Of a DNA stretch of 44,405 nt, positions 1,892 through 25,386 are shown in pieces. The number at the start of each line of letters is the position of its first letter. The stretch's first letter is position 1. The position numbers and the translations under genes are program-made. Origin of the DNA: an archaeon (GTDB taxonomy: Archaea > Iainarchaeota > Iainarchaeia > Iainarchaeales > JAAZKV01); contig JAVHOV010000016.1 of the NCBI GenBank assembly GCA_036170245.1, positions 1 through 44,405 on the forward strand. Reading direction: 5' to 3'. Below the pieces are notes generated by a model. It had not been told where the DNA came from and ran no database searches. It saw only the letters and a program-made list of their open reading frames with translations.

Positions 1892-2536
1892 TTAATCGTA
1901 AAGTTCTTTTGTGAATTTGTTAAGCTCTTCTTTATTCAAGTGCTTTAGCATAAAGTCAGCATATTTTTGGAATATTCCTGACAACTGAACCAAACCATCC
2001 TGGAACTCTGCCTGAGTAATTTCTATCTTATCTGGCTTTATTACTTCTATTGAAGTAGGGCCATAGTAGAACAAGAACAACATCAAAGTCGAAAAGTCCT
2101 TGACAGTCAAAGTTACTTCAATGAATGAAGAGTACATTTCATCCTCTTCAACTATTTCTGCAGGAACTATATTGTAGATAGTAAAATTCTTTTCAGATTT
2201 AATTGCAGCAATTATTTTTTCCAAGTGCTTTGCAAGCAAATTCTTTTCAATTGCTTTCAATTCAATTATGGCGCTGACTTTTATCTTAAACGAATCAGCT
2301 TCAGAAATCTTTTTTCTTTTCTGCAATTCATCAATAATATCCTGTCTCAATCTATACTTTGTAGGATAACCTTCTTTTAGAACTAAACCAAGTTTTAGCA
2401 TCTGTTTTAATTCAAGAGAAAGTTTGTCATAAGGCAAGTTTAATTGTTTATGCAAGTCTTCTTCAGTCTTTGGATCTGAAAGCAACAAAAGAGCAATCTT
2501 TTTTTGTTCGTCACTAAATCCACTCATAAAAATCAA
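1892..2536 (-). CDS. Hypothetical protein with N-terminal wHTH-like region
   Basis: 214-aa ORF; helix-turn-helix-like N-terminus (LKQMLKLGLV..EGYPTKY). Confidence 0.55.
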   Translation of the reverse strand: MIFMSGFSDEQKKIALLLLSDPKTEEDLHKQLNLPYDKLSLELKQMLKLGLVLKEGYPTKYRLRQDIIDELQKRKKISEADSFKIKVSAIIELKAIEKNLLAKHLEKIIAAIKSEKNFTIYNIVPAEIVEEDEMYSSFIEVTLTVKDFSTLMLFLFYYGPTSIEVIKPDKIEITQAEFQDGLVQLSGIFQKYADFMLKHLNKEELNKFTKELYD

Positions 2537-2697
2537 TCAATAATATAGAAGCAAGCTACTCTTGGGTTTAAAAAAGTAATTTTAGAAGCAAAATTCGGGA
2601 ATTTAAAAGAAAAGTAATAAAAAGAACCAACGCACTAGTACTATTGACGATTATGAATTTCATTTTACTTGATATATTTAATGAATTTGCAAAAGGA

Positions 2698-2982
2698 ATG
2701 AGTTTTACTCTCCCTGATGCAGCATCAACTGCAACTAACCTTGTAGCTAACCCAACTATATTAGTAATAGGAATAATTCTGATTATTGCAACCATATTTA
2801 TTTTGTTTTTCTTAAAAAAAGTAATAACCAATAGTATTCTTGGAGCAGTAATTTGGGGAATCAGCATTTACTTTTTTCACATTGAGTTACCCTTGATTCC
2901 AAGTTTTGTTATTTCAGTAATCATTGGGCCCGCAGGAATTGGAACAATGTTGCTTCTAAAGTTTTTTGGCCTACTGGTGTAA
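2698..2982 (+). CDS. Small membrane protein, BofA-like
   Basis: Three hydrophobic segments, NSILG...IGPAG.G..LLL pattern; start uncertain. Confidence 0.5.
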   Translation: MSFTLPDAASTATNLVANPTILVIGIILIIATIFILFFLKKVITNSILGAVIWGISIYFFHIELPLIPSFVISVIIGPAGIGTMLLLKFFGLLV

Positions 2983-2986
2983 AAAA

Positions 2987-3349
2987 ATGGCAATAATTAG
3001 CAGACTAAGGAAAGCAACTACTAATCTTAAAACAAATTCTAAATTATCTAAAGAAGTATTGAAACTAATTTGGAAAAATAGGAATGCAAAAAAACTTCCA
3101 AAAGAAGGTTCATTTGAATCTGTGATTTTAAGAAGACAATTAAAGGAAAGTACTATGGCAAAACCCATAAAAAATGCTTTAAGAAAAGGACTCACAAGAG
3201 TAATTCACAAACACTTACAAAGCGGAAAAATGTGGGTTGATTTTAGAAAAGATATTAAAGCAATAGAAACTAAAAGAGGAAAAAAGGTTGAGGAAGAAGA
3301 ACTTGAAACATTATGGAACAAGTGGAATACTGACCACGCAAATTGCTAA
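2987..3349 (+). CDS. Basic hypothetical protein
   Basis: Lys/Arg-rich ORF filling the gap between genes. Confidence 0.55.
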   Translation: MAIISRLRKATTNLKTNSKLSKEVLKLIWKNRNAKKLPKEGSFESVILRRQLKESTMAKPIKNALRKGLTRVIHKHLQSGKMWVDFRKDIKAIETKRGKKVEEEELETLWNKWNTDHANC

Positions 3350-3367
3350 ATTAAATTATAACAAAAA

Positions 3368-4519
3368 CTATTTTTTAATTAAATTTTCTAAAGAATTTTT
3401 ATCATTATCTAACTCTTCACCAAACAGAGCATAATTACTCCACTCATTATTGCTAAAGATAAAAAAATCATTATCAGTAATTAAAGTGTTAATGAAGGAG
3501 GAGTGAACAGAATCATTTGAAACCAAAAAGATGCCTGAGTCATTTCCAACAAATCCTAAATATCCTCCTGTCTGAGGTTCAATTAATTCTGCAGAATTCA
3601 AAACAGAAATATCCTCTGAAGAAACAATCTTTTTATTTGCAAAAGCTAAAACACAATGTCCATTAACTTGACCCGTATTAGGATCAAAAATTGATCCGCA
3701 TACAATAACAGGAAAAACATTATTTTTATCCAAATATTTCTGTGTTGCATTCTCCAAGTACCAAGTGTTGTCAAAGTTAGACCAAAATCGGCTCCCTTTT
3801 TTTTCTACCCACGCAAATAAAGTCGGTTTTTTTCCATTGCACGATTCAATCAGTGAATTATATTCAGCTTTGAAAAAAAGGGAAAAATCTTCGCAATCTC
3901 CCCCCTTATTCTTTATGAATTCAGAAATTGTCTGAAGCTTATCAGAAACATTTGAAGTAATTAAATCATCTTTATATTTGTAATTAATAAACTCAGAATT
4001 AACCAAGTGAAAACACCCCAAATTAATCTGACAAACTTTACTGGTTTCTTTTTTGCAACTTGATTTCAAATTCAAAAGAATGTTTTCATGATTTCCCAAA
4101 ACAGAATTTGAACTAAACCAATCAAGGGAAGATTGAATTTCTATTTGATAATCATTAATTTTTGAAATTGTGCTGTCAACCTCATCCTTCAAATTAGAAT
4201 ATGAATATTCTAAAGCATTGTTCTTTGATGAAAGGGAATTATATTCACCATTCAATTTATTTAAAGCAGAATTCAAATCAGAATTTTCTTTATTGAGAGA
4301 AAAAATAATTGAATTCAATGAAGAAACTTTTGAGTCATACCCTGCCACAAAAGCAGAATACTCTTTTTTCAGATTCTCAGAAGAAATATTTGAAAAAACC
4401 AATAATCCAATACACACAACTAATAGCACTACTAAAATCAATATTGCCCAAATATATTTTGTGGAAGATGTTTTATCAAAAAAGAAGGGCTTTTGTTTGC
4501 TAACACTATTTTTATGCAT
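3368..4519 (-). CDS. Membrane-anchored coiled-coil protein with transglutaminase-like Cys protease domain
   Basis: N-terminal TM, coiled coil, GDCEDFS ... GHC ... IEPQTG triad pattern. Confidence 0.7.
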   Translation of the reverse strand: MHKNSVSKQKPFFFDKTSSTKYIWAILILVVLLVVCIGLLVFSNISSENLKKEYSAFVAGYDSKVSSLNSIIFSLNKENSDLNSALNKLNGEYNSLSSKNNALEYSYSNLKDEVDSTISKINDYQIEIQSSLDWFSSNSVLGNHENILLNLKSSCKKETSKVCQINLGCFHLVNSEFINYKYKDDLITSNVSDKLQTISEFIKNKGGDCEDFSLFFKAEYNSLIESCNGKKPTLFAWVEKKGSRFWSNFDNTWYLENATQKYLDKNNVFPVIVCGSIFDPNTGQVNGHCVLAFANKKIVSSEDISVLNSAELIEPQTGGYLGFVGNDSGIFLVSNDSVHSSFINTLITDNDFFIFSNNEWSNYALFGEELDNDKNSLENLIKK

Positions 4520-4572
4520 GAAAAAATAAGAGACTAACTCCCTTTAATACTTTATTCAACTACAAAATAATT

Positions 4573-5181
4573 GTGGAACTAAACGAAAGCTTTAAACTTG
4601 CACAAGTCAGAAATGAACTACTTGATCATGCAAAAAAACACGCTCTTTACAAAAACGTTTTGGATACAAAAGGACATATTGTTTTTGGAAGAGGAGACGA
4701 TGAATCAAAAATACTTTTTATTGGAGAAGCTCCTGGTTTTACTGAAAATGAAATAGGAAAACCTTTTGTGGGAAGAAGCGGAAAACTCCTTGAAGAATGG
4801 GTTAAGGAACTAAACATAAACCAAAAATATGCAATAATGAATGTTGTCCCAATGATTCCATTAAGTGAGGACAAAAAAATAAGACCCCCTACTCCCGAAG
4901 AAATAAACTACTTTTTGCCATACACAATGAAAATGGTTAATACAATCAATCCAAAAGTTATAGTACTTTTAGGAAAAAGCGCAGCAAGAGCATTTGGGAA
5001 AGAAGAAATGAAAGTAGGGCAAACTACTGAATATGAAGGGAAAAAAATGTTTTTCATTTACCATCCTGCATACTATCTTCGAAATGGCAGAAAAGGGCTT
5101 GAAGATTTGACTAACTTAAAAAAACTATTAACCCAAGAAGAAGACAAAAACAAACAGAGCTCAATAAAAAACTTTTTTTAA
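4573..5181 (+). CDS. udg: Uracil-DNA glycosylase, family 4-like
   Basis: IGEAPG, PFVGRSG, RPPT.EE, HPAY motifs; C-terminal PIP box QSSIKNFF. Confidence 0.9.
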   Translation: MELNESFKLAQVRNELLDHAKKHALYKNVLDTKGHIVFGRGDDESKILFIGEAPGFTENEIGKPFVGRSGKLLEEWVKELNINQKYAIMNVVPMIPLSEDKKIRPPTPEEINYFLPYTMKMVNTINPKVIVLLGKSAARAFGKEEMKVGQTTEYEGKKMFFIYHPAYYLRNGRKGLEDLTNLKKLLTQEEDKNKQSSIKNFF

Positions 5182-5226
5182 AAAATAAAAAAGCAAAAAA
5201 AATATTTAAAAAAATAATAGAAAGGG

Positions 5227-6009
5227 TTACCTTACATAAGAAAGGCAACCATCAACTTTTTCTTCAACATCTTGCTGTTCATGAAGATTTGTTGTTAATT
5301 CTTTGAATGCTTTTTCAATTGACTTAGCATCCTTTTCAATGCTCTTCATTTTCAGCTTCAAATTGAATCTCTTTGAAACAAGTTCAATTACTTGCTTTGC
5401 TGAACCTTGATCCCCATAAACTAACTGAGGATTAGTTTCACCCATTAAGCAAGCACCCTTTATTCCGTGCAACTTCCCAATACCAATTAACAATCCCGCA
5501 GCACCAGAAATCAATCCTTCTTTCTTGTCTTCCTTTGCTCCAAACTTCTTCCAAATATTAACTATCTCATCATCAGTTCCTGCAACAATTACTTCAGGTT
5601 TTTTATTCAATCTGTTGTCCCCTACATTTAACCCTGCTAGAGTTATACTTTCAGTAACTCCAACGCTTTTGAAAAAAGAAATTAAAGTCTCGGCAAATTC
5701 ATAATGCTCATGAGATGAACCAACTTTAAAATCAAGAGTAGGCTGAACGGGTCCAGAAAGAATCAAGAAATCCTTTCCTTTAAAATTGAAGTAAAATATT
5801 TCATCCTTAATCAAAAATATTTTTGAATCTTTTGTGTGAATGCTTGGAGGAAAAGAATCTGACAAAATTTCTGCAATCTTTTCAGTCTTTAATTGCTTAA
5901 GCAAATAATCAACAGCTATTTTTCCAACTAGACCAATTCCTGGCAGACCGACTAAAAGTGTTGCATCCTTAAGCTGAACTTTTTTTGTGACTAATATTCT
6001 TGTAGGCAT
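5227..6009 (-). CDS. Proteasome assembly chaperone (PAC2 family)
   Basis: GLPGIGLVGKIA, ISGAAGLL, CLMGET motifs; typical position after aIF2-alpha. Confidence 0.85.
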   Translation of the reverse strand: MPTRILVTKKVQLKDATLLVGLPGIGLVGKIAVDYLLKQLKTEKIAEILSDSFPPSIHTKDSKIFLIKDEIFYFNFKGKDFLILSGPVQPTLDFKVGSSHEHYEFAETLISFFKSVGVTESITLAGLNVGDNRLNKKPEVIVAGTDDEIVNIWKKFGAKEDKKEGLISGAAGLLIGIGKLHGIKGACLMGETNPQLVYGDQGSAKQVIELVSKRFNLKLKMKSIEKDAKSIEKAFKELTTNLHEQQDVEEKVDGCLSYVR

Positions 6010-6078
6010 AGCAGAATATTATAAGAAAAGGAATATAAAGCTGAATGAGAAAGAAGAACAGAGACGAAATTAGCACAA

Positions 6079-6840
6079 TTATTTCTTTTCATCTCTTGTG
6101 AATTCGAAAGAAACGCCTGCTTTCTTTGAACTCTTTTCAGCAGATTCAACTAACTTAGTAAGAGTTTTGTCTGCTTCCTTAAAAGTCAAGCCAGAACAAG
6201 AAATATTAAAAGTTCCTCCACCAGCGTAAGAAACAATACAAGTTTTAGTTGCTTCAAAATCAGCCAAAATACTTTTGATTGTTGCAAGTCCGCCAGCAGC
6301 AAGACAAGAAAGTTTTGCTTTTCCAGAAATTTCTTTCTTTGAAACAACAATATTATCTTTGATTAATTGTTTAACAGGCAGAACCCATTCTTTTGCAACT
6401 TCACTTGAAAAATCATAACCCAAAGCAATTTTTTCAAACGCTTCATATAATGAACCGTGAACTTGAGTTAAGGGATCAGCAACTGCAGCCCAAACTTCAG
6501 CAAATGGTTTATTTGTTGACTTTGAAAGAATTTCAATTAATTTTTCTTCTCTATTTATCTGCTTGAATTGAGTCAGAACCTGTCTCTCTCTCATTGGATT
6601 AACTCCGGCAAAAGCCAAGTCAATCTGTTTTTTTACTAAATCAACGTTAAGTACTTTTGCAACTCTAACCTGATTCATTTTGACAAAATTTCTAATATTT
6701 TTAACCCAAGAAGAAGAAACATTACTGATATGGATAAACCCTCTAGCATTTTTGTATTCTAAAAGCTCAACAAAAACACCATAGTCAAGGATTTGAATTA
6801 CCTTTACTACAACAAAATCGTCTCTATTTGGGAATTCCAT
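6079..6840 (-). CDS. eif2a: Translation initiation factor 2 alpha subunit
   Basis: S1 domain YGVFVELLEY..ARGFIHIS.VSSSWVKNIR; GSLYEAFE. Confidence 0.92.
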   Translation of the reverse strand: MEFPNRDDFVVVKVIQILDYGVFVELLEYKNARGFIHISNVSSSWVKNIRNFVKMNQVRVAKVLNVDLVKKQIDLAFAGVNPMRERQVLTQFKQINREEKLIEILSKSTNKPFAEVWAAVADPLTQVHGSLYEAFEKIALGYDFSSEVAKEWVLPVKQLIKDNIVVSKKEISGKAKLSCLAAGGLATIKSILADFEATKTCIVSYAGGGTFNISCSGLTFKEADKTLTKLVESAEKSSKKAGVSFEFTRDEKK

Positions 6841-17930: not shown

Positions 17931-18371
17931 ATGATATTCTTAAATAAACCAACTGATTTTAATCCTAAAATGAGAGTAAGCGCATGCATGATACTTGTGG
18001 GCAAAGAATTTCTTAATTTAGAAACTGGTTCGCACAAAAAACTTGCAGGACTTTGGGGAGTACCTGCAGGAAAAATTGAATCAAATGAAACCCCTAAAGA
18101 AGGAATTTTAAGAGAAGTAAAGGAAGAAACTGGAATCACTCTTGACCCGAAAGAAACAAAAGAATTTAAACTGGTTTATGTAAGATACCCTGAAATGGAT
18201 TTTGAATACCATATGTTTTATATCAGATTGAAAGAAAAACCAAGAGTAATTCTTGACGGAAAAGAAAATTCAAATTATATGTGGACTACAAAAGAAAGCT
18301 CATTAAAACTTCCGCTTATACCAGATGAAGGAGCTTGTGTAGAATTATTTTTTAGAGAACTAAAAAAATAA
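17931..18371 (+). CDS. NUDIX hydrolase
   Basis: PAGKIESNETPKEGILREVKEETG Nudix box. Confidence 0.88.
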   Translation: MIFLNKPTDFNPKMRVSACMILVGKEFLNLETGSHKKLAGLWGVPAGKIESNETPKEGILREVKEETGITLDPKETKEFKLVYVRYPEMDFEYHMFYIRLKEKPRVILDGKENSNYMWTTKESSLKLPLIPDEGACVELFFRELKK

Positions 18372-18406
18372 TTAAAAAAATAATTAAAATCAGAAAGAAT
18401 TCTAAA

Positions 18407-19969
18407 TTAATTTTTGTTCTTAGCCAAAACGGGCTTTGACAAAAGTTTTTTTGCTTCTACTAAAATATTTTTTTTAGGATAAATTGCTTTTGACAATTGT
18501 TTCAAGAACTGAGTTTTCTTCTGTGAATTTTCAAGAGCAACTTCTAATACTTCAACAAGAGTTGAAACTGGAATTATTTTTACTTTAGCCAATTCTTCTT
18601 TGCCAACAACAATATCCCCAATATTACTTTTTGGAACAATTATTTCTTTGAAACCTGCTTTAATTGCAGCACTGACTTTAGCTGAAACTCCTCCCACAGG
18701 AAGAACTTCACCTCTTACAGAAAGAGAACCAGTCATTGCAACAATTTGCCTCACTGGCAACTCTTCTGCTGCTGAAATTACTGCAGTGGCAATTGAAACA
18801 CTAGCACTGTCCCCTTCTACACCTTCATAAGTCTGAAGGAATTGGATGTGAATATCTTTCAAAAATTCTTTTCCGCTAATTTTCTTAAAAATTACTGAAA
18901 CATTTTGCACAGCTTCTTTTGCAATTTCCCCTAATTTTCCAGTAGCAATAACTCTGCTTTCAGTTGTTGAACTTGAAGGAGTAACTGCGGCTTCAATCGG
19001 AATAATACTTCCAGCACTTCCGTCCCCGAAAACTGCGAGTCCATTAACTCTCCCAATTGTAACTCCATTGATTAAATAAACTTCATAATCTTTCTTTGTA
19101 TCAATCATTTTGTCAACGATTTGATTTTCAAGAGTTCTAGCAGACAACTTTGCTTCAAAAACATCTTGTCGCGTAACATATTTATGAGATTTTTCTTTTG
19201 CAATATCTCCAGCCCCTCTTACAAGTCCACCAAGGTCACGAAGCTTCAAAGTCAATTTACCTTTATGGTCACTTCTTCTTCTTGCTTCAAAAATAATTTC
19301 TTCAACAGCATCTCTAGCGAAGTGAGGAATTTTTCCATCCTTAATTACTTCCTGTGCAACAAACTGTGCAATCTTTTTTCTATTCTCATCATTGTCTTCC
19401 ATATCAACATTCATATAAACTTCGTAACCGTAACCTCTAATTCTGCTTCTTAATGCAGGGTGAACTTTTTCTAAATCCTGATAATTTCCTGCTGCAATTA
19501 AAACAAAGTCACAAGGAACTGGTTCTGTTCGAGTCATTGCCCCACTTGAGTTTTCGGACTGACCAGTAATAGAATATTTCTTTTCCTGCATTGCTGTCAA
19601 AAGTTCCTGCTGAGATTTGTGAGACAAAGTTGCAATTTCATCAATAAATAAAACTCCTCCACTAGCTCTATGAATCATTCCAGGTTCTACTCTTAAGTGA
19701 GCTGGAGTACCTAAGCCACCTGAATTGTGAACCAAAATATCTTCAACGAATAAGTTTCCTGTTTCGGTTGTAACATTATAAACGTACCCCTTATGTTGAC
19801 GCTTAGAGATTTTTGGAGAAAAGGTAGTAACTGATTTATTAAGTTTGAACGAAGGCTTTGAAGAAGCTTTGCGTAAAGAATTTTTTGGAGTAAGTTTTTC
19901 TTTAGAAGTTATTGAGTTAGTTTTCTTAGAACCCTTAACAATCACTGATTTAGTTTTCTTTAGAACCAT
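18407..19969 (-). CDS. lonB: C-intein fused to C-terminal half of LonB protease (Walker B to protease domain)
   Basis: [55 protein letters not shown] (Ser) and GGVSAK (Lys) dyad. Start is ATG 19969 or ATG 20026 (overlaps RT stop). Confidence 0.9.
19724..19969 (-). other. C-terminal half of split intein (IntC; blocks F and G)
   Basis: Ends in canonical His-Asn followed by Ser+1 at 19723-19721. Confidence 0.88.
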
Positions 19970-19989
19970 AACCAATACGTTTTGGAAAA

Positions 19990-20005
19990 CAATTAAATAC
20001 CTATT
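19990..20005 (-). promoter_or_regulatory. Candidate TATA-box promoter for the IntC-LonC gene
   Basis: AAATAGGTATTTAATT about 25-30 nt upstream of ATG 19969, spacing compatible with a leaderless archaeal transcript. Confidence 0.4.
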
Positions 20006-20025
20006 TGAGGAGAAACTAAAACTCA

Positions 20026-21324
20026 TTAAAAGCACAATTTTGTGAAAGAAAACTCTTTGATTGTTTGTTGTTTTAAGCGATAATTATTTGCGTGCTTAAA
20101 ATGCCCCAAATAAGAACTAAAAGAAGAACGAAAAGCTTTATCTTCAAAAGAACCTTTCTCAAAGAAAAAAATCTTGCTTTCTTGAAGCTCTTTACTTGCC
20201 ATCAAAAGTTTATTTTTGAAATTATGTAAAACTCTCTTTCTGACAAAAACACTCCAAGGCTTAATAATATAACCCAAAAAATCAATACCATTAGATAGGG
20301 GCAAAAGATTTACTTTATTTTTTAAATTCAAGAGCAAATGAGTTTCAACAAAATCCTTAATCTTCCAAAACCAATTTAACAATTCTTCTTTAGATTCTGA
20401 GAGCAAAATAAAATCATCAACGTATCTGACATAGTATTTGCATTTTAATTTTTTTTTTACAAAATTATCCAATTCATTCAAATAGACGTTTGCAAAGAAT
20501 TGGCTCGTGTGATTACCAATTGGAAGCCCCTTACCCTTCTCAACATTAATTAAGGATTTATAATTTGGAACTAGTCCACTAATCTCTTTTGTAGATTTTT
20601 GGATAAAATTTGTTGCAGGATCATGAAAAATAAGTTTTTTTGTAATCCAAAGCAAATCTTTTTTAAAATAATTATCAAAAAAACTAAAGCTATTTACTTT
20701 ATTTTCAATTATAAAAAACAAAATCTGCTTATCAATACTCATAAAGAAGTTACTTATATCTAGTTGTAGAAAATATGCTCTCTTTCTTCCAGAATTACCC
20801 CCAATTATTTTTCTTGTATTTCTTTGTAAATGTTTTACTGCTTTATGAGTCCCTTTATTTTTTCTACAAGCAAAACTATCTTTAGAAAAACTTGGTTCAA
20901 AAATAGTTTCAAGTGCGCTTACGATTATATGATGAACTATTCTATCTCTAAAATCTGCCGCAAAAATTTCTCTCGGCTTTGGTTTTAAGACAGTAAAACA
21001 AACAGAACGCCTCGGCTCATAAGTCTTATTATTTAAAGAATAATACAATTCTTGCAAATTTTGTTCAAGGTTTTCCTCAAACTTTAAAGCATTAACTGTA
21101 TTACGCTTTCTTTTTCTACAACTAATATAATTATTGTAAATATTTTGAAAGCTAAATAGAGCCGAGGGCGTTTCTTTTTCAAAACGAACACAACGAGCCT
21201 GGTTGTTGTTGTCGTTGTCCTTATTGTCGTTGTTGATGTTACCATTGTCGGTATTCAAGTTGTACGCGTTGTTCGGGTACGCAGGCATACTCGTTGTGTG
21301 CGAACCATCCATAGCTAAAACCAT
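20026..21324 (-). CDS. DGR reverse transcriptase (N-terminus includes translated TR)
   Basis: [48 protein letters not shown] (DGR SQ motif), [15 protein letters not shown]. Confidence 0.95.
21176..21296 (-). repeat. DGR template repeat (TR)
   Basis: 121 nt, 13 AAY codons; aligns with 22001-22118. Confidence 0.95.
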
Positions 21325-21490
21325 ACAGCCCTAGCAGTTTTTTTCACCACTTGGGTTGTTCGCATCAAAAAGAAACCTGCTATTAACGCTTCCTCGCCAA
21401 GGCAAAGAATTCTGAGCCGTTCTGTTACTATTTGCCTCACTAACTTTGTTAATGAGCATAAAAATTTTTGAAAACATATTTAACCACCTA

Positions 21491-21838
21491 TTAATATTTT
21501 TGACTATTTAACCACGCTTGAGACTGTTTAGCTAAATCAACTACTAAACCAGAAGAATACTCATAAGAAGAAAACTTTTTAAAAACACCAACTTCCCTAC
21601 ACAAACGAACAACTAGCTTCAATTCCTCTACTAGCGCAACCAACTCTTGCAAAGCATTCCTTTTTTCAGGCAAAGAATTCGCACGCATTATTTGACAAGC
21701 TATTCCTCTACTTTTATTCCTTAAATCAGTTCCAAGAACATATTTATCATATCTTGAAAAACCCTTTACTAACTTTTCAAAATAAACACACAAATCAAAA
21801 GCCTTCTTATAAATCGGCAAATAATCATACTGAGCCAT
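21491..21838 (-). CDS. avd: Accessory variability determinant (Avd-like four-helix bundle)
   Basis: YLPIYKKAFDL...F.RYDKY.LG.DLR...LAKQ..AW; RBS GTGGTG before ATG 21838; lies between target and TR. Confidence 0.85.
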   Translation of the reverse strand: MAQYDYLPIYKKAFDLCVYFEKLVKGFSRYDKYVLGTDLRNKSRGIACQIMRANSLPEKRNALQELVALVEELKLVVRLCREVGVFKKFSSYEYSSGLVVDLAKQSQAWLNSQKY

Positions 21839-21966
21839 AAAAAACACCACTTTAAAATTTTTTTCGTGCTCCCTCAAAGGGAGCACTTATTCTTCTCTCA
21901 CTTCACGCATAATTCCTTAACGACGAATAATCAAACACCCCAAAACACATTGGTTTTGGGTATCTC

Positions 21967-21985
21967 GCAAATGCTTTGCATTTGC
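21967..21985 (-). promoter_or_regulatory. DGR target-recognition hairpin downstream of VR
   Basis: GCAAATGC-ttt-GCATTTGC perfect 8-bp stem 11 nt past the target stop codon. Confidence 0.75.
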
Positions 21986-21996
21986 TCAATCACCAA

Positions 21997-23029
21997 CTAA
22001 TTTTCAAAACGAACACAACGAGCCTGGAAGACGCCGTAGTCCTTATCGCCGAAGCCGATGCCACCATAGCTGGTATCCAAGTAGTACGCGTAGTTCGGGT
22101 ACGCAGGCATACTCGTTGAACTCCAGTAATAATTACATCCAATAAACATAGAATTACAAGTCCCAGTCGAATAATCATAAATTGCATTAATTTCATTCAC
22201 AGTAGGCAACCTCCAACCACTACCAGGAAGACTCGGCGTATTATTATTACAATAATCTAAACTAGACTGCCAAGTAATATTAATACCTTTATCAGCTTTC
22301 TGCCACATCAAACCAGAATTCAAATCACTAACAGTACCATTAGAATTGTCTCTCCAAACGTGCTTATAATCTGCACCATAAATTTCCCCATCTTCACCAG
22401 TCCCAATACAACTTCTTGAACTTCCACTTACCTCATAACAAGTTGTTTGTCCACTTCCAAGACCATAATACATCGGAACAGGATCAGCGCAACTCGGGCA
22501 CTGACTAGCTAACAAAGTTGCGTTAACCACATAAGGAGAACAATCAAACATCACCTTAGCAGGATACTTTTCAGTCTTACTCAAACCATCCCGAGTAACA
22601 TACGTAACCGTCACATCCTGAGAAACAACTTTCCCCTCAACACAAACAGCACTCGTATCAACCCTAAAAAACTTATTACTACCCTGCGCCAAATCCTCAG
22701 AAAAAGAAACATTACTATCACCCACACTAACATTAGAAACAGTAATAACATCCCCACTATTATTCAACAAACGAACAACAAAATTACCATCACTAGGATC
22801 AACCAAAGACTCAGTAACACCAATAACCTGACTTTTCAAACCCAACTGATTACCAGAAGAAGAAACTTGCGAACTATTATCAATTTGAGTAATAATCAAA
22901 CCAACAACAATCAAACCAATAACAACAACAACCGCAATAATAACCAAATACTCAATAGTACCCTGCGCTCTAGAATAAGAAACTAATTTACTATTCTCTC
23001 TCTCTCTCTCTCTCTCTCTGCGAATTCAT
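21997..23029 (-). CDS. DGR target: class III signal peptide (pilin-like) protein with C-terminal DUF1566/Lcl C-type lectin-fold domain; frameshifted at (GA)12 in this assembly
   Basis: RAQGTIEYLVIIAVVVVIG upstream of the listed ORF start; GQTTCY, DN.NGTV.D..SGLMWQ, WRLPT..E, YWSST, ARCVR; ATG 23029 with RBS GGAGTGG. Confidence 0.88.
22001..22118 (-). repeat. DGR variable repeat (VR)
   Basis: 20 substitutions vs TR by manual alignment, 19 at TR adenines, plus one codon deletion; encodes the target's C-terminus. Confidence 0.95.
22995..23019 (-). repeat. (GA)12 dinucleotide microsatellite
   Basis: tctctc run directly after the 5' codons ATG AAT TCG of the target. Confidence 0.95.
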
Positions 23030-23059
23030 ATTTTCCACTCCTTGAAGTTTGACTAAACA

Positions 23060-23282
23060 TACCAGTAACAAAGAACCAAACTTATATATAAATATTCTAT
23101 AATTTGCTGTGAATGCTCCATCCTTACGATGTCTACCGGCAGAATAATTTTTGTTTATGTTGCCTGTAGTCAATATTCCTATAGAATCCAAAAGCCGTTC
23201 TAACTCTTTTAAATCTTGCAATTCTTTTTACTGACAATATTTCCTCTTTTGAGGGTTTATTGAAATTATTTGAAAAATACAT
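23060..23282 (-). pseudogene. Probable LAGLIDADG homing endonuclease remnant
   Basis: LKELERLLDSIGI.TT...RKDG.FTANYRIFI resembles the second half of a LAGLIDADG domain; truncated and out of frame with ATG 23282. Confidence 0.5.
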
Positions 23283-23286
23283 TCAA

Positions 23287-23443
23287 GCCACCTCCGCAAA
23301 AAATGAATTTTTTCATAGACGGCTCTGCTGCTTTTGGAGACATTAAACCCTTTAGCCAACAGGCGACCCCGCTAAACGCGGGGTAAAGGTTTAAGTCGAG
23401 AAAAGCAGAGTCTAAAGAAAAAATTCACCAAAGAGGAGGTGGC
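23287..23443. ncRNA. 157-nt long imperfect hairpin (structured RNA or MITE-like element)
   Basis: Nested pairs GCCACCTCC/GGAGGTGGC, TGAATTTTTTC/GAAAAAATTCA, TAGAC/GTCTA, CTGCTTTT/AAAAGCAG, TTAAACC/GGTTTAA, CCCCGC/GCGGGG. Confidence 0.6.
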
Positions 23444-23476
23444 AATGTTTTGAAAAATACAATACTAGAAAAAAGA

Positions 23477-23851
23477 TTAAGCAGTTGTTTGAGAAAGTTT
23501 GAACAAAGAATCTTTTTCAGAAACTTTTTCTGCATTCTTATCCCCAGTCTTTGTAATTATTTTGTGCTCAGGAGTAAAAGTAGCTTTCTTTTCACCAATA
23601 GAAAGTTCAACAACTTCCCCTTCATAAGGATGTCTGTTTAAAGAATAAATTCTTGAAGGAATTATTTTTTCATCTTTCATTCCAAGCACATAAACAATTT
23701 CTTTTTTAGGTAAAACCATTGCTTCATATCCTTTTTCGTGTTTCTCAACTAGATCAGGATATTTTTTTGACATTGTTGCCCAAAGTTTTCCATAAGAAAT
23801 TTCTTTCCAAACACCCTTTAGACAAACAACGAACGAATCTTCGTCAATTGA
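23477..23851 (-). other. N-terminal half of split intein (IntN, about 124 aa; blocks A and B)
   Basis: SIDEDSFVV block A after HDPLQS; YEGEVVEL......TFTPEHKI block B; ends at stop 23477. Confidence 0.88.
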
Positions 23852-24547
23852 CGATTGCAAGGGGTCGTGACGAACATCACCAAGTAAAGCACCAGCTCTA
23901 CTCCCTGTTGCTTCAAAGAAAGGAGCAATCTTTTTTCCTAAATTATTAACTAACAATTTTGGAGTAACGTTAGAATCCTTACTGCGCATCTGCCCGCCTA
24001 AAGCAACTCCAATTAATAAAAATCCACCAACAACAATTAATGCTGCATAAACAACATCAGGGTACCATTTCAATTGCCATAGTAAAGTTGAAAGAACCAT
24101 CCAGCCAATCGGAAGCAAAAGAGAAACAAGTCTCATTGAGTCATCCTGTTTTGCAGTTTCAAAGTGAGCTGCTTCAATAATTCTTTTTCCTTCCCCAGCT
24201 TTTACTACTCTAACTCGTGGATTATTTGGGTCCTCTGAATTAGGGTAAATCAAAATATCCTGCAACTGAGAAACTGGTAAAATTTCACTCATTGCTTGAG
24301 CTAATAAAGATTTTCCTGTCCCTGGAACACCCACAAGCAAAACATTTCTTTTCTGTGCAGCAGCTTTTCTAATAATTTCAACACTTTTCTCTTGACCAAT
24401 TACTTGCTCAATCAAAGAAGAAGGAACTGCAATTTCAGAAGTATTTGTAAAACTAGTTAAATCAAAATCTTTAACGTTTGCAACAACACCTTGAATGGGA
24501 GCATCAAGTTTTTTTACAGAATGAGCTTTTTTCTTTTTTGCACTCAT
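23477..24547 (-). CDS. lonB: N-terminal half of LonB protease fused to N-intein
   Basis: QVIGQE, Walker A GVPGTGKS, two TM helices, PKLLV.N, GALLGDVRHDPLQ. Confidence 0.92.
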   Translation of the reverse strand: MSAKKKKAHSVKKLDAPIQGVVANVKDFDLTSFTNTSEIAVPSSLIEQVIGQEKSVEIIRKAAAQKRNVLLVGVPGTGKSLLAQAMSEILPVSQLQDILIYPNSEDPNNPRVRVVKAGEGKRIIEAAHFETAKQDDSMRLVSLLLPIGWMVLSTLLWQLKWYPDVVYAALIVVGGFLLIGVALGGQMRSKDSNVTPKLLVNNLGKKIAPFFEATGSRAGALLGDVRHDPLQSSIDEDSFVVCLKGVWKEISYGKLWATMSKKYPDLVEKHEKGYEAMVLPKKEIVYVLGMKDEKIIPSRIYSLNRHPYEGEVVELSIGEKKATFTPEHKIITKTGDKNAEKVSEKDSLFKLSQTTA

Positions 24548-24666
24548 GCACATAGTCTGGTGGAGAAGGTTAAAAAAGGTATTTGGGAGAAAAAAATATG
24601 TTCAAAAGGCCAAAAAATAAAACTTAAACAAGTAAGTTTTAAAATAACAACGCCCCACTATAGTGG

Positions 24667-25386
24667 ATGCCAAAATTTGAAAGAGTCAGAGTAGGTCACC
24701 AACGCGGATTTATACCAAAAAGAGCGGAATCAAAGGGACTTACACGAGTAGTAAGAAACCCAAAAATAAAAAACCTTCCAAGAGGAGCATTTACTCTATT
24801 TGGAAAACCATCAAGAGTATTTCACGTCACAACAAGTTATCCAAAAGTTATTACAAACCAGCATCAAATGGATGCTTGGGATAAAAAAGCCCCAAAAGGA
24901 AAAAGAAAAGACAAACGCAAAAATAAACCAACTGCAAAAATAATTATACGCACTCACAACAAAGAATATGCTCAAAAGATACAAGCACAAGACAAACTCA
25001 GAAAAGAAAATGCTTATTTAACAATAAATTTGAGGTGGAAAATACTTAAATATTTCAAAGAGAAAAAGGCATTGGACAGAACACAAATTGATGCATTAAA
25101 GAAAATGATAATGGAATGGGTTGAACAAGCCAACAAAATATTTCCCGGAGAAGAATTTTTCCTAAAGAAACCTATTACAAACCCAGCAAGAAAACTTGCT
25201 GAAAACAGAATCAAATTCATTAACAAAAATCGAGATGAAATAGGAGGATATTTATGGCATCTGCCTATAAACAGAGATGAATACTGGGAGCTACAAAAAG
25301 AACTGTTCAAATACAATCCGCCCAAGGCAAGAACGGATATTATCCCTAAAAGAATTAAGGAACTGCTAAACCCAAAGTCTCATTGA
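24667..25386 (+). CDS. Basic hypothetical protein
   Basis: 239-aa Lys/Arg-rich ORF. Confidence 0.65.
   Translation: MPKFERVRVGHQRGFIPKRAESKGLTRVVRNPKIKNLPRGAFTLFGKPSRVFHVTTSYPKVITNQHQMDAWDKKAPKGKRKDKRKNKPTAKIIIRTHNKEYAQKIQAQDKLRKENAYLTINLRWKILKYFKEKKALDRTQIDALKKMIMEWVEQANKIFPGEEFFLKKPITNPARKLAENRIKFINKNRDEIGGYLWHLPINRDEYWELQKELFKYNPPKARTDIIPKRIKELLNPKSH

Follow-up and report, generated by a model that had tools for sequence, protein, structure and literature searches.

A diversity-generating retroelement as the probable passenger of a fractured lonB gene in an Iainarchaeales archaeon

The window analyzed in this work, a stretch of DNA of 44,405 nucleotides, is contig C16 (JAVHOV010000016.1) of the 867-kb draft genome of an archaeon of the order Iainarchaeales, an assembly of 43 contigs that is 86% complete. 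It contains the gene for the archaeal protease LonB, broken into two halves by a split intein, and the space between the N-terminal and C-terminal intein halves (IntN and IntC) is occupied by a complete diversity-generating retroelement (DGR). We consider it quite probable that this is a fractured lonB gene carrying the DGR as a passenger, and the most likely reading of the DGR in the gap is that it works on its own.

Our explanation of the locus is as follows. The starting point would be an intein in archaeal LonB, located at the HDPLQ|S site, that was split when its LAGLIDADG endonuclease domain became a separate gene. From then on LonB would have been produced in the form of two polypeptides (N-extein-IntN and IntC-C-extein), with one promoter for each, that would be rejoined by trans-splicing. 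Because the DNA between the halves needs no translation while both flanks are required for the only LonB of the genome, careless deletion would be barred and cargo would be collected, at a site that would have the gene for the homing endonuclease (HEN) upstream of it and the IntC promoter downstream. For one family of this DPANN order this cargo would be a complete DGR, whose reverse transcriptase (RT) and Avd protein would copy the template repeat (TR), with adenine-specific errors, into the variable repeat (VR) of a pilin-like Lcl_C surface protein. The HEN of the window has decayed, so that the cassette would now be fixed in place.

The broken lonB gene and its split intein

Read along the minus strand from 24553 to 18407, the locus consists of the LonB N half, a spacer, the DGR target gene, avd, the TR, the RT gene and the IntC-LonB C half (IntC-LonC); all features described below lie on this strand. 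The corresponding open reading frames (ORFs) are a 358-aa LonB N-terminus with about 125 extra residues, a 316-aa Lcl_C/DUF1566 protein, a 131-aa Avd-like protein, a 432-aa RT and a 542-aa frame whose final 438 residues are the remainder of LonB. The window is AT-rich, with a G+C content of about 31-35%. The spacer between the 358-aa ORF and the target region measures 530 nt, and the intein halves form two genes 3.5 kb apart. An earlier reading of the window, made from the sequence only, had described the target gene with its VR, the hairpins, avd, the TR and the RT as co-oriented with lonB and as filling the space between IntN and IntC, and all of these elements are present in that arrangement.

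The position of the break can be stated to the residue. The N-extein (23855..24553) comprises the Walker A part of the AAA+ domain and the membrane hairpin and ends with ...GDVRHDPLQ; it matches PDB entry 4zpx (E 8.7e-52) and positions 3-197 of the NCBIfam LonB profile TIGR00764. The C-extein (18410..19723) starts at Ser+1 (SGGLGTPAH...) and contains the rest of the AAA+ domain, the LID and the S16 protease domain, with matches to PDB entry 3k1j (E 1.6e-169), to TIGR00764 (E 1.2e-187) and to the Pfam families Lon_C and LonB_AAA-LID. TIGR00764 is therefore covered in complementary pieces, by the N half at 3-197 and by the C half up to 606. Aligned with the LonB of T. onnurineus (PDB 4zpx, 3k1j), the N half (24553..23477) extends as far as ...HDPFQS and the C half (20035..18407) starts at SGGLGTPAH. 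The intein-less genomes G003, G008 and G009, which belong to the genus of the window (G labels denote genomes, G000 being the window's own, and L labels denote stretches from genomes or metagenome contigs), have GDVRHDPLQ|SGGLGTP uninterrupted at the point where the gene of the window is broken, and intein-less relatives read on past the N-extein as ...HDPLQSGGLGTP. The break adds or removes no residue in comparison with the solved LonB or the intein-less relatives. As HDPLQ is followed in the window by an insert that begins with Ser1, and the C half resumes at SGGLGTPAH, splicing would restore a normal LonB sequence. A search of the 86%-complete genome gave one strong LonB match.

The insert has the features of an intein in two parts. 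IntN (23480..23854) is 125 aa long, begins with Ser1 at 23854, contains block B as TFTPEHK and ends at a stop codon at 23479-23477; it matches Pfam Intein_splicing at 15-92 (E 0.005) and TIGR01445 (E 0.0028). IntC (19724..19969) has 82 aa counted from a conserved ATG at 19969, with a Lys/Ser-rich leader followed by a core of about 36 aa, and matches Intein_splicing at 101-155 (E 0.011). The two Intein_splicing matches are complementary and each is weak alone; the contiguous intein of G051, which occupies the same site, gives E 3.7e-16. Position 1 of the intein is Cys, Ser or Thr in the relatives, block B reads TPEH in all 27 aligned IntN sequences, and the terminal Asn (N42) and the +1 Ser (S43) are invariant in 23 of 23 IntC sequences. 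The IntC of the window ends with ...ILVHN|S, and a few relatives have Ser or Cys in place of the penultimate His. A model of the IntN-IntC complex scored 0.83, against 0.01 for the best control, with a partner predicted local distance difference test (pLDDT) value of at least 75 and agreement between runs in at least 86% of the contacts; the mark used for this score is passed by 116 of 157 solved complexes and by 2 of 215 mismatched pairs. Since split-intein complexes have already been solved, the score shows likeness to these and is not proof. From the extein boundaries and the conserved splicing residues we infer that the LonB halves are rejoined by protein trans-splicing.

Some further observations concern the inteins themselves. 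The allele of the window has Ser at both junctions (23854 and 19723), its IntC has no cysteine and its IntN has one internal Cys; the allele may serve as a natural starting point for split inteins that use serine at the two junctions. Extra lonB inteins are found in relatives (L037, L040, L062, L068, L072) at about residue 71 of the C-extein (G045, G037, G069, G172) and at about residue 85 of the N-extein (G037, G168), and some of the extra inteins have their own LAGLIDADG domain. In another contig of the window's genome (G000:C28:5001-5423; L056), an 826-aa frame has a weak LAGLIDADG-HEN-like match (E 1.1e-4) and may contain a contiguous intein in a different gene.

The layout of the locus is no assembly artefact. 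The sequence-only reading had made its claim depend on support for the junctions, and for the RT-IntC junction contigs give support: it is present on single contigs of seven loci (the window, L043, L049, L060, L077, L078 and L085, the last with an RT remnant), and a Logan contig from the run that may be the source of the window covers 18400-21355 with zero differences. Overlapping unitigs of the same run reach 22947 and another contig runs from 23028 onward. Logan contigs from manure and landfill runs contain relatives of IntN, the DGR and the RT-IntC junction. A contig from an RNA library (X19, 2624 nt), which is about 90% alike and belongs to a relative, covers target, avd, TR and RT; it proves neither a single transcript nor an origin from RNA. 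No Rfam family was found in a scan of 18000-25000 at E values up to 0.1. One could suppose that the lonB halves are pseudogene pieces, or that the contig is chimeric at the DGR, as the genome is a draft of 43 contigs and 86% completeness with an unbridged (GA)n tract at the start of the target gene, but this explanation is already largely refuted and we find it scarcely credible. The exteins contain no stops and share 84-93% identity with those of relatives from the same genus, the splicing residues are intact, the same junctions recur in independent assemblies and in three metagenome contigs, and the two DGR copies of this genome are only 78% alike in their RT.

The retroelement in the gap and the decayed endonuclease

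The DGR in the lonB gap is complete. Its target gene (21997..22994) encodes a pilin-like signal (..AQGTIEYLVII..), a motif common to the homologues, and a C-terminal Lcl_C/DUF1566 domain (Pfam Lcl_C, E 1.6e-19); the Lcl_C match extends to the C-terminus of the protein, where the VR of 118 nt lies (22001..22118, from the TR/VR alignment). Hairpins follow the VR at a distance of at most 60 nt, and a repeat search placed three of them between the VR and avd (21866..21996), at 21996-21956 (imperfect), 21960-21939 and 21886-21866. The avd gene (21491..21838) probably starts at the ATG at 21838, as homologues align from residue 16-17 of the listed ORF, which begins at a GTG at 21886; the Avd-like protein has the position and size expected for Avd. 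The TR (21176..21296, by the same alignment) has 121 nt with 45 adenines, and the 5' end of the RT ORF (20026..21324) overlaps it. The RT matches Pfam RVT_1 (E 3.7e-19) and its translation contains IGNHTSQ and YVDD; the motif I/LGxxxSQ is a mark of DGR RTs. A DGR-specific RT model was absent among the NCBIfam matches of this protein. The TR and VR differ by 20 mismatches, 19 of which fall on TR adenines (10 A>G and 9 A>T), so that 19 of the 45 adenines are changed, and their final 26 nt are identical. Within an AAC run (VR 22034-22024, TR 21214-21200) the VR lacks one codon that the TR has. The target gene of the nearest metagenome relative (L100) is about 73% alike, which is too distant for a comparison of VRs.

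The genome has a second complete DGR (L004, G000:C30:1-3588) with target, avd, TR and RT, the RT being 78% identical to that of the window. It is followed by small unrelated ORFs and not by IntC or lonB, and the idea that all DGRs of this lineage reside in split genes was dropped for this reason. Another DGR outside lonB, in G016:C11 (L058), is flanked by near-duplicate ORFs of about 270 aa (MKTLQIVLMGWEYDRIV...) at 722-1531 and 4736-5533.

According to the sequence-only reading the DGR sits where the HEN would be. It does lie between the intein halves, but its position is not that of the HEN, which in relatives stands upstream of the DGR and of which the window keeps a decayed piece. The gaps of relatives start with a small ORF of about 90 aa followed by a free-standing HEN gene of about 360 aa, and in G028, G005, G012 and G022 this LAGLIDADG HEN gene precedes the DGR genes. 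Between the intein halves of the window there is no intact free-standing HEN gene; there is instead a pseudogene remnant of 126 nt (23088..23213), 98.4% identical to L044:2836-2961 in the HEN gene of G012; in comparison with that genome, 933 and 229 nt have been deleted on its two sides. HEN residues 263-333 are matched in the window, with one internal TAA. The spacer from the ancestral cassette (23214..23476), with 88% DNA identity to G012 as far as 23209, holds a 7-bp hairpin at 23384-23366 and the first 22 or so codons of the small ORF found ahead of the HEN in relatives, a likeness judged by eye.

The nature of the free-standing HEN is indicated by several matches. The copy in G059 (L039:1589-2827) matches Pfam LAGLIDADG_3 with 26.2 bits (cut-off 22.5; E 9.4e-6). 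No Pfam match was obtained for the copies of G012 and G028; these two share 53-90% identity with one another and with the full-length copies of G005, G016, G021, G022, G030 and G069, a comparison in which the G059 copy was not included. The HEN of G012 also matches the intein part of NF038162, a model of intein-containing RtcB (E 4.4e-18), and an alignment of the free-standing HEN with the HEN domain in the contiguous intein of G099 gives 35% identity (E 3e-42). A search of the genome contigs with the HEN protein returned 4 close loci.

At the other end of the DGR, the final A of the RT stop codon (TAA, 20028-20026) is also the first letter of an ATG (20026-20024) in the frame of IntC-LonC, and the TAATG overlap at 20028-20024 that the sequence-only reading had pointed out is there as described. 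That reading also supposed that the DGR may be co-transcribed with lon. A stronger form of the idea is that the DGR is transcriptionally or translationally coupled to IntC-LonC through the overlap, with LonB output tied to DGR expression or the reverse. The co-orientation of the genes is consistent with such coupling, as is the presence of the overlapping in-frame ATG in L085 as well as in the window, but we regard it as very improbable. The overlap is absent in G005 and G028, where the RT ends with TGA and no ATG overlaps it, and related DGRs are found at unrelated sites (G000:C30, G021:C42, G016:C11 and G027:C3). Moreover, a TATTTAA box (19993..19999), a putative archaeal promoter, lies 30 nt before the IntC ATG (19969-19967), and the same box starts 30-33 nt before the conserved IntC-frame ATG in 16 of 25 fractured lonB loci, including some that have no DGR. 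A looser box pattern is found in 19 of the 25; the chance of a match per locus is about 0.2% for TATTTAA and about 1% for the looser pattern, and the loci are related. About 30 nt is the usual spacing between an archaeal TATA box and the start of the transcript, so the spacing found here suggests a leaderless IntC-LonC mRNA made from a promoter of its own. Because the box is conserved also in loci without a DGR, the TAATG overlap is probably incidental.

Cargo in the lonB gaps and the history of the cassette

To see the window among its relatives, LonB was searched for in 60 related genomes and in the window's own, and the halves were found in 58 of these 61 with either query. Most LonB proteins among the 61 genomes are single intein-less frames of 650-690 aa. 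Within the order, an IntN was found in 51 of the 196 genomes, spread over 30 of 73 genera, and nearly always in frames of 340-380 aa, that is, in split form. Contiguous lonB inteins occur in G099, G067, G074 and G051, in frames of 1120-1160 aa. In most genomes the halves are 1-5 kb apart. We examined 40 stretches and found both halves on one stretch in 20 loci, which are the complete gaps referred to here. A DGR occupies two of them (the window and G028), other cargo is found in 11, six contain the HEN alone (G059, G161, G172, G076, G187 and G165) and one, with 340 nt between the halves, is empty (G068). Fifteen of the 20 gaps have a full-length HEN, two have a remnant of it and three have none. 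The cargo is varied: a Zn-phospholipase-C-like protein of about 248 aa (G030, G046, G037, G155, G125), a TPR protein with a 183-aa protein (G016), a 332-aa ORF on the opposite strand (G045), a 552-aa secreted protein (G047), an AAA_14/DUF4143 ATPase and more (G119), and proteins without assignment (G069, G152). The lonB gap is thus a cargo site, as the sequence-only reading had supposed when it called the middle of this conserved gene a landing site created by the split intein, and the contiguous, empty and cargo-bearing states (13 of the 20 gaps in the last case) that it expected of a survey were all found.

Partial loci add to the number of DGRs in lonB. In G005, IntN, HEN and target are on one contig and avd, RT, IntC and LonC on another; G021 has target-avd-RT-IntC-LonC; G012 and G022 have IntN-HEN-target, after which the contig ends. 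The genome lonB loci that bear a DGR are all in family f1, in at least three genera. Among 79 metagenome loci with a relative of the RT, the order RT-IntC-LonC was found in three (L077, L078, L085), and of six close RTs (at least 67% identity) with room downstream, three are followed by IntC-LonC and three are not.

Other observations on the gaps deserve mention. The gap of L085 is a record of successive arrivals, as it contains older DGR fragments (avd, pieces of a target gene and a C-terminal RT remnant that abuts IntC), a RhuM-family gene, an AAA_14/DUF4143 ATPase gene and, upstream of the RT remnant, a second, intact DGR; the coordinates of these gap pieces are 5-295, 1957-4935, 5041-6087 and 6140-6247. 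AAA_14/DUF4143 ATPase genes recur in lonB gaps and beside the DGRs of this family (L048:3137-4372, L063:3604-4911, L085:565-1821 and L059:3375-4652; the first three were checked with Pfam and the L059 copy was assigned by sequence likeness only). In G052 (L051, L052) the lonB halves are on different contigs among unrelated genes, with an ORF resembling a DNA methylase in sequence before the C half, and this genome may represent the unlinked end state of the series.

The history of intein and DGR was approached by comparing the identity of neighboring modules. The DNA of IntN is closer to that of the window than the last 600 nt of the N-extein are in G012 (96 vs 84%) and G020 (96 vs 79%), and the same holds for IntN and the N-extein in G021 (88 vs 71%), G022 (87 vs 70%) and G069, a member of another family (78 vs 67%). 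At the protein level, IntN identity exceeds C-extein identity. As IntN is more alike across genomes than the adjoining extein, the intein has moved horizontally, and the step in identity at the splice site is the trace expected of homing or gene conversion.

It could accordingly be proposed, as the sequence-only reading did in part, that IntN-HEN-DGR-IntC is a composite mobile element which homes as a unit into intein-less lonB genes, the intein spreading the DGR. In addition to the identity step, this proposal is favored by the coexistence of intein-less and fractured alleles within one genus, by the presence of the same RT-IntC junction in genera g1 and g5, and by the 91% (IntN) and 90% (HEN) identity between G005 (g1) and G028 (g5). 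We nevertheless judge it unlikely. The window and G012 are 96-98% identical in IntN and the HEN piece and then 83% identical in the target gene, and this drop right after the HEN piece places the DGR outside the recently shared tract. The modules form a mosaic: G005 and the window share 53% identity in IntN, 80% in the target, 97% in Avd and 89% in the RT, and the target genes of G005 and G028 differ. In the RT tree, RTs from lonB and from elsewhere are intermingled, well-supported branches force at least two changes of place, and the lonB-embedded RT of L085 is sister to one located elsewhere (G027:C3; support 100/99). The HEN of the window is dead. Of the claim of a moving unit, the horizontal spread of IntN and HEN stands and the inclusion of the DGR is doubtful, to judge from G012.

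Returning to the DGR as a passenger of the fractured gene, its arrival can be outlined from the junction. Downstream of the RT stop, homologous DNA continues in five of five aligned lonB-embedded loci, and three DGR copies located elsewhere diverge there at once, which points to one ancestral RT-IntC junction. Independent repeated insertion at the same base is unlikely given this shared junction DNA, and a single insertion followed by strictly vertical descent of the whole cassette was rejected because of the mosaic identities and the RT tree. The simplest reading would be that the DGR was inserted once, after which DGR paralogues recombined with one another and copies spread out of lonB. A tentative extension, to which we give rather less than even weight and indeed consider doubtful, is that homing or gene conversion at the lonB intein site carries along whatever lies between the halves, the gap being a deletion-protected and spreading "safe harbor". 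If this were true, a protein-splicing element would be a vehicle that distributes accessory genes, including whole DGRs, through reduced DPANN genomes.

Several results weigh against a fractured lonB gene with an active passenger DGR, or against parts of this explanation. The TR and VR differ by one mismatch at a position that is not an adenine and by one 3-nt indel. Avd falls below the curated cut-offs of both models that it matches (Pfam bAvd, E 4.1e-6, 27.7 bits with a cut-off of 40; NCBIfam DivGenRetAVD, E 2e-8, 34.5 bits with a cut-off of 80). The start region of the target gene (22995..23029) consists of an ATG (23029-23027) and a (GA)n tract of 25 nt (23019-22995), and as assembled this ATG does not share the reading frame of the remaining gene, so that the DGR may have no expressed target, or the tract may be an assembly error; the stretch 22987-23027 is not bridged by Logan contigs. 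The ATG is in frame in G012 (about 8 GA units) and in G005 (about 5); in the window, with about 12 units and some other indels, it is not, and one GA unit more or two fewer would put it in frame. The length of the tract reflects either slipped-strand phase variation of the DGR target or an error of assembly. The RT was not found in the assemblies of G012 and G022, which have only the target beside the HEN. Resolution of the RT tree is poor, 7 of its 11 inner branches being open, and the surveyed relatives are kin and not independent samples.

Comparison with known systems

The nearest counterparts of the split intein are the contiguous LonB inteins of G051, G099, G067 and G074, which share its host protein and the HDPLQ|S site. 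These have a LAGLIDADG domain between their splicing blocks and form one frame of 1120-1160 aa, whereas the intein of the window is encoded in two genes. Lon inteins of Pyrococcus are listed in InBase. Literature searches for a split intein in an archaeal Lon protease gave unrelated papers only, and those for DPANN split inteins turned up MCM inteins only; subscription papers were outside both searches. For annotation the locus is a warning, in that a "truncated" Lon protease gene beside a DGR is no pseudogene. The order contributes a large natural family of split inteins (51 of 196 genomes), some with Ser at both junctions, a property that protein engineers have sought according to the accessible text of PMC13014065.

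DGRs of DPANN archaea have reportedly been treated by Wu and colleagues in 2018 and by Paul and colleagues in 2017. The DGR of the window resembles those in the accessible part of Paul et al. 2015 (PMC4372165) in the order target-avd-TR-RT, in the adenine-specific differences between TR and VR and in having a variable protein with the DUF1566/Lcl_C lectin fold; the word "intein" occurs 0 times in that paper. We found no paper on a DGR inside a split-intein locus in a search that was judged mainly by titles and did not extend to subscription papers, and PMC12386605, in its accessible part, treats DGRs and inteins separately. DGR biology gains from this locus a defined and repeatedly used archaeal insertion context and a natural test of whether a retroelement can hitch-hike on homing.

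The closest known arrangement is that of the "fractured genes" of Dassa et al. 2009 (PMC2677866), whose accessible text describes 26 loci, mostly viral genes of DNA metabolism, with a GIY-YIG or Vsr-like endonuclease alone in the gap, and a model that proceeds to unlinked halves. As in those loci, a conserved enzyme gene is broken here by a split intein, with N-extein-IntN, a free endonuclease and IntC-C-extein on one strand, a hairpin before the endonuclease and states from which the endonuclease is absent. Unlike in those loci, the gene broken here belongs to an archaeal chromosome and encodes a protease, the endonuclease is a LAGLIDADG protein with homology to the HEN domain that contiguous inteins carry at this site, and the gap holds further genes, a retroelement among them. 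The sequence-only reading had expected a new composite architecture, and in this respect the DGR as gap cargo is the new part; the mechanism is not new, the locus being a variant of the fractured genes. The series proposed for phage fractured genes can now be seen in cellular chromosomes, from contiguous inteins through split inteins with a free endonuclease and cargo-laden gaps to those with a decayed endonuclease and perhaps to unlinked halves, with the added step that the gap becomes a hotspot for unrelated genes.

A final comparison is with the cyanobacterial DnaE and the Nanoarchaeum equitans polymerase, as presented in the same accessible text (PMC2677866). There, as is predicted for LonB here, an essential enzyme is produced from two genes by trans-splicing; the halves of DnaE and of the N. 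equitans polymerase are far apart, whereas those of lonB are for the most part near neighbors, with the gap and its cargo between them.

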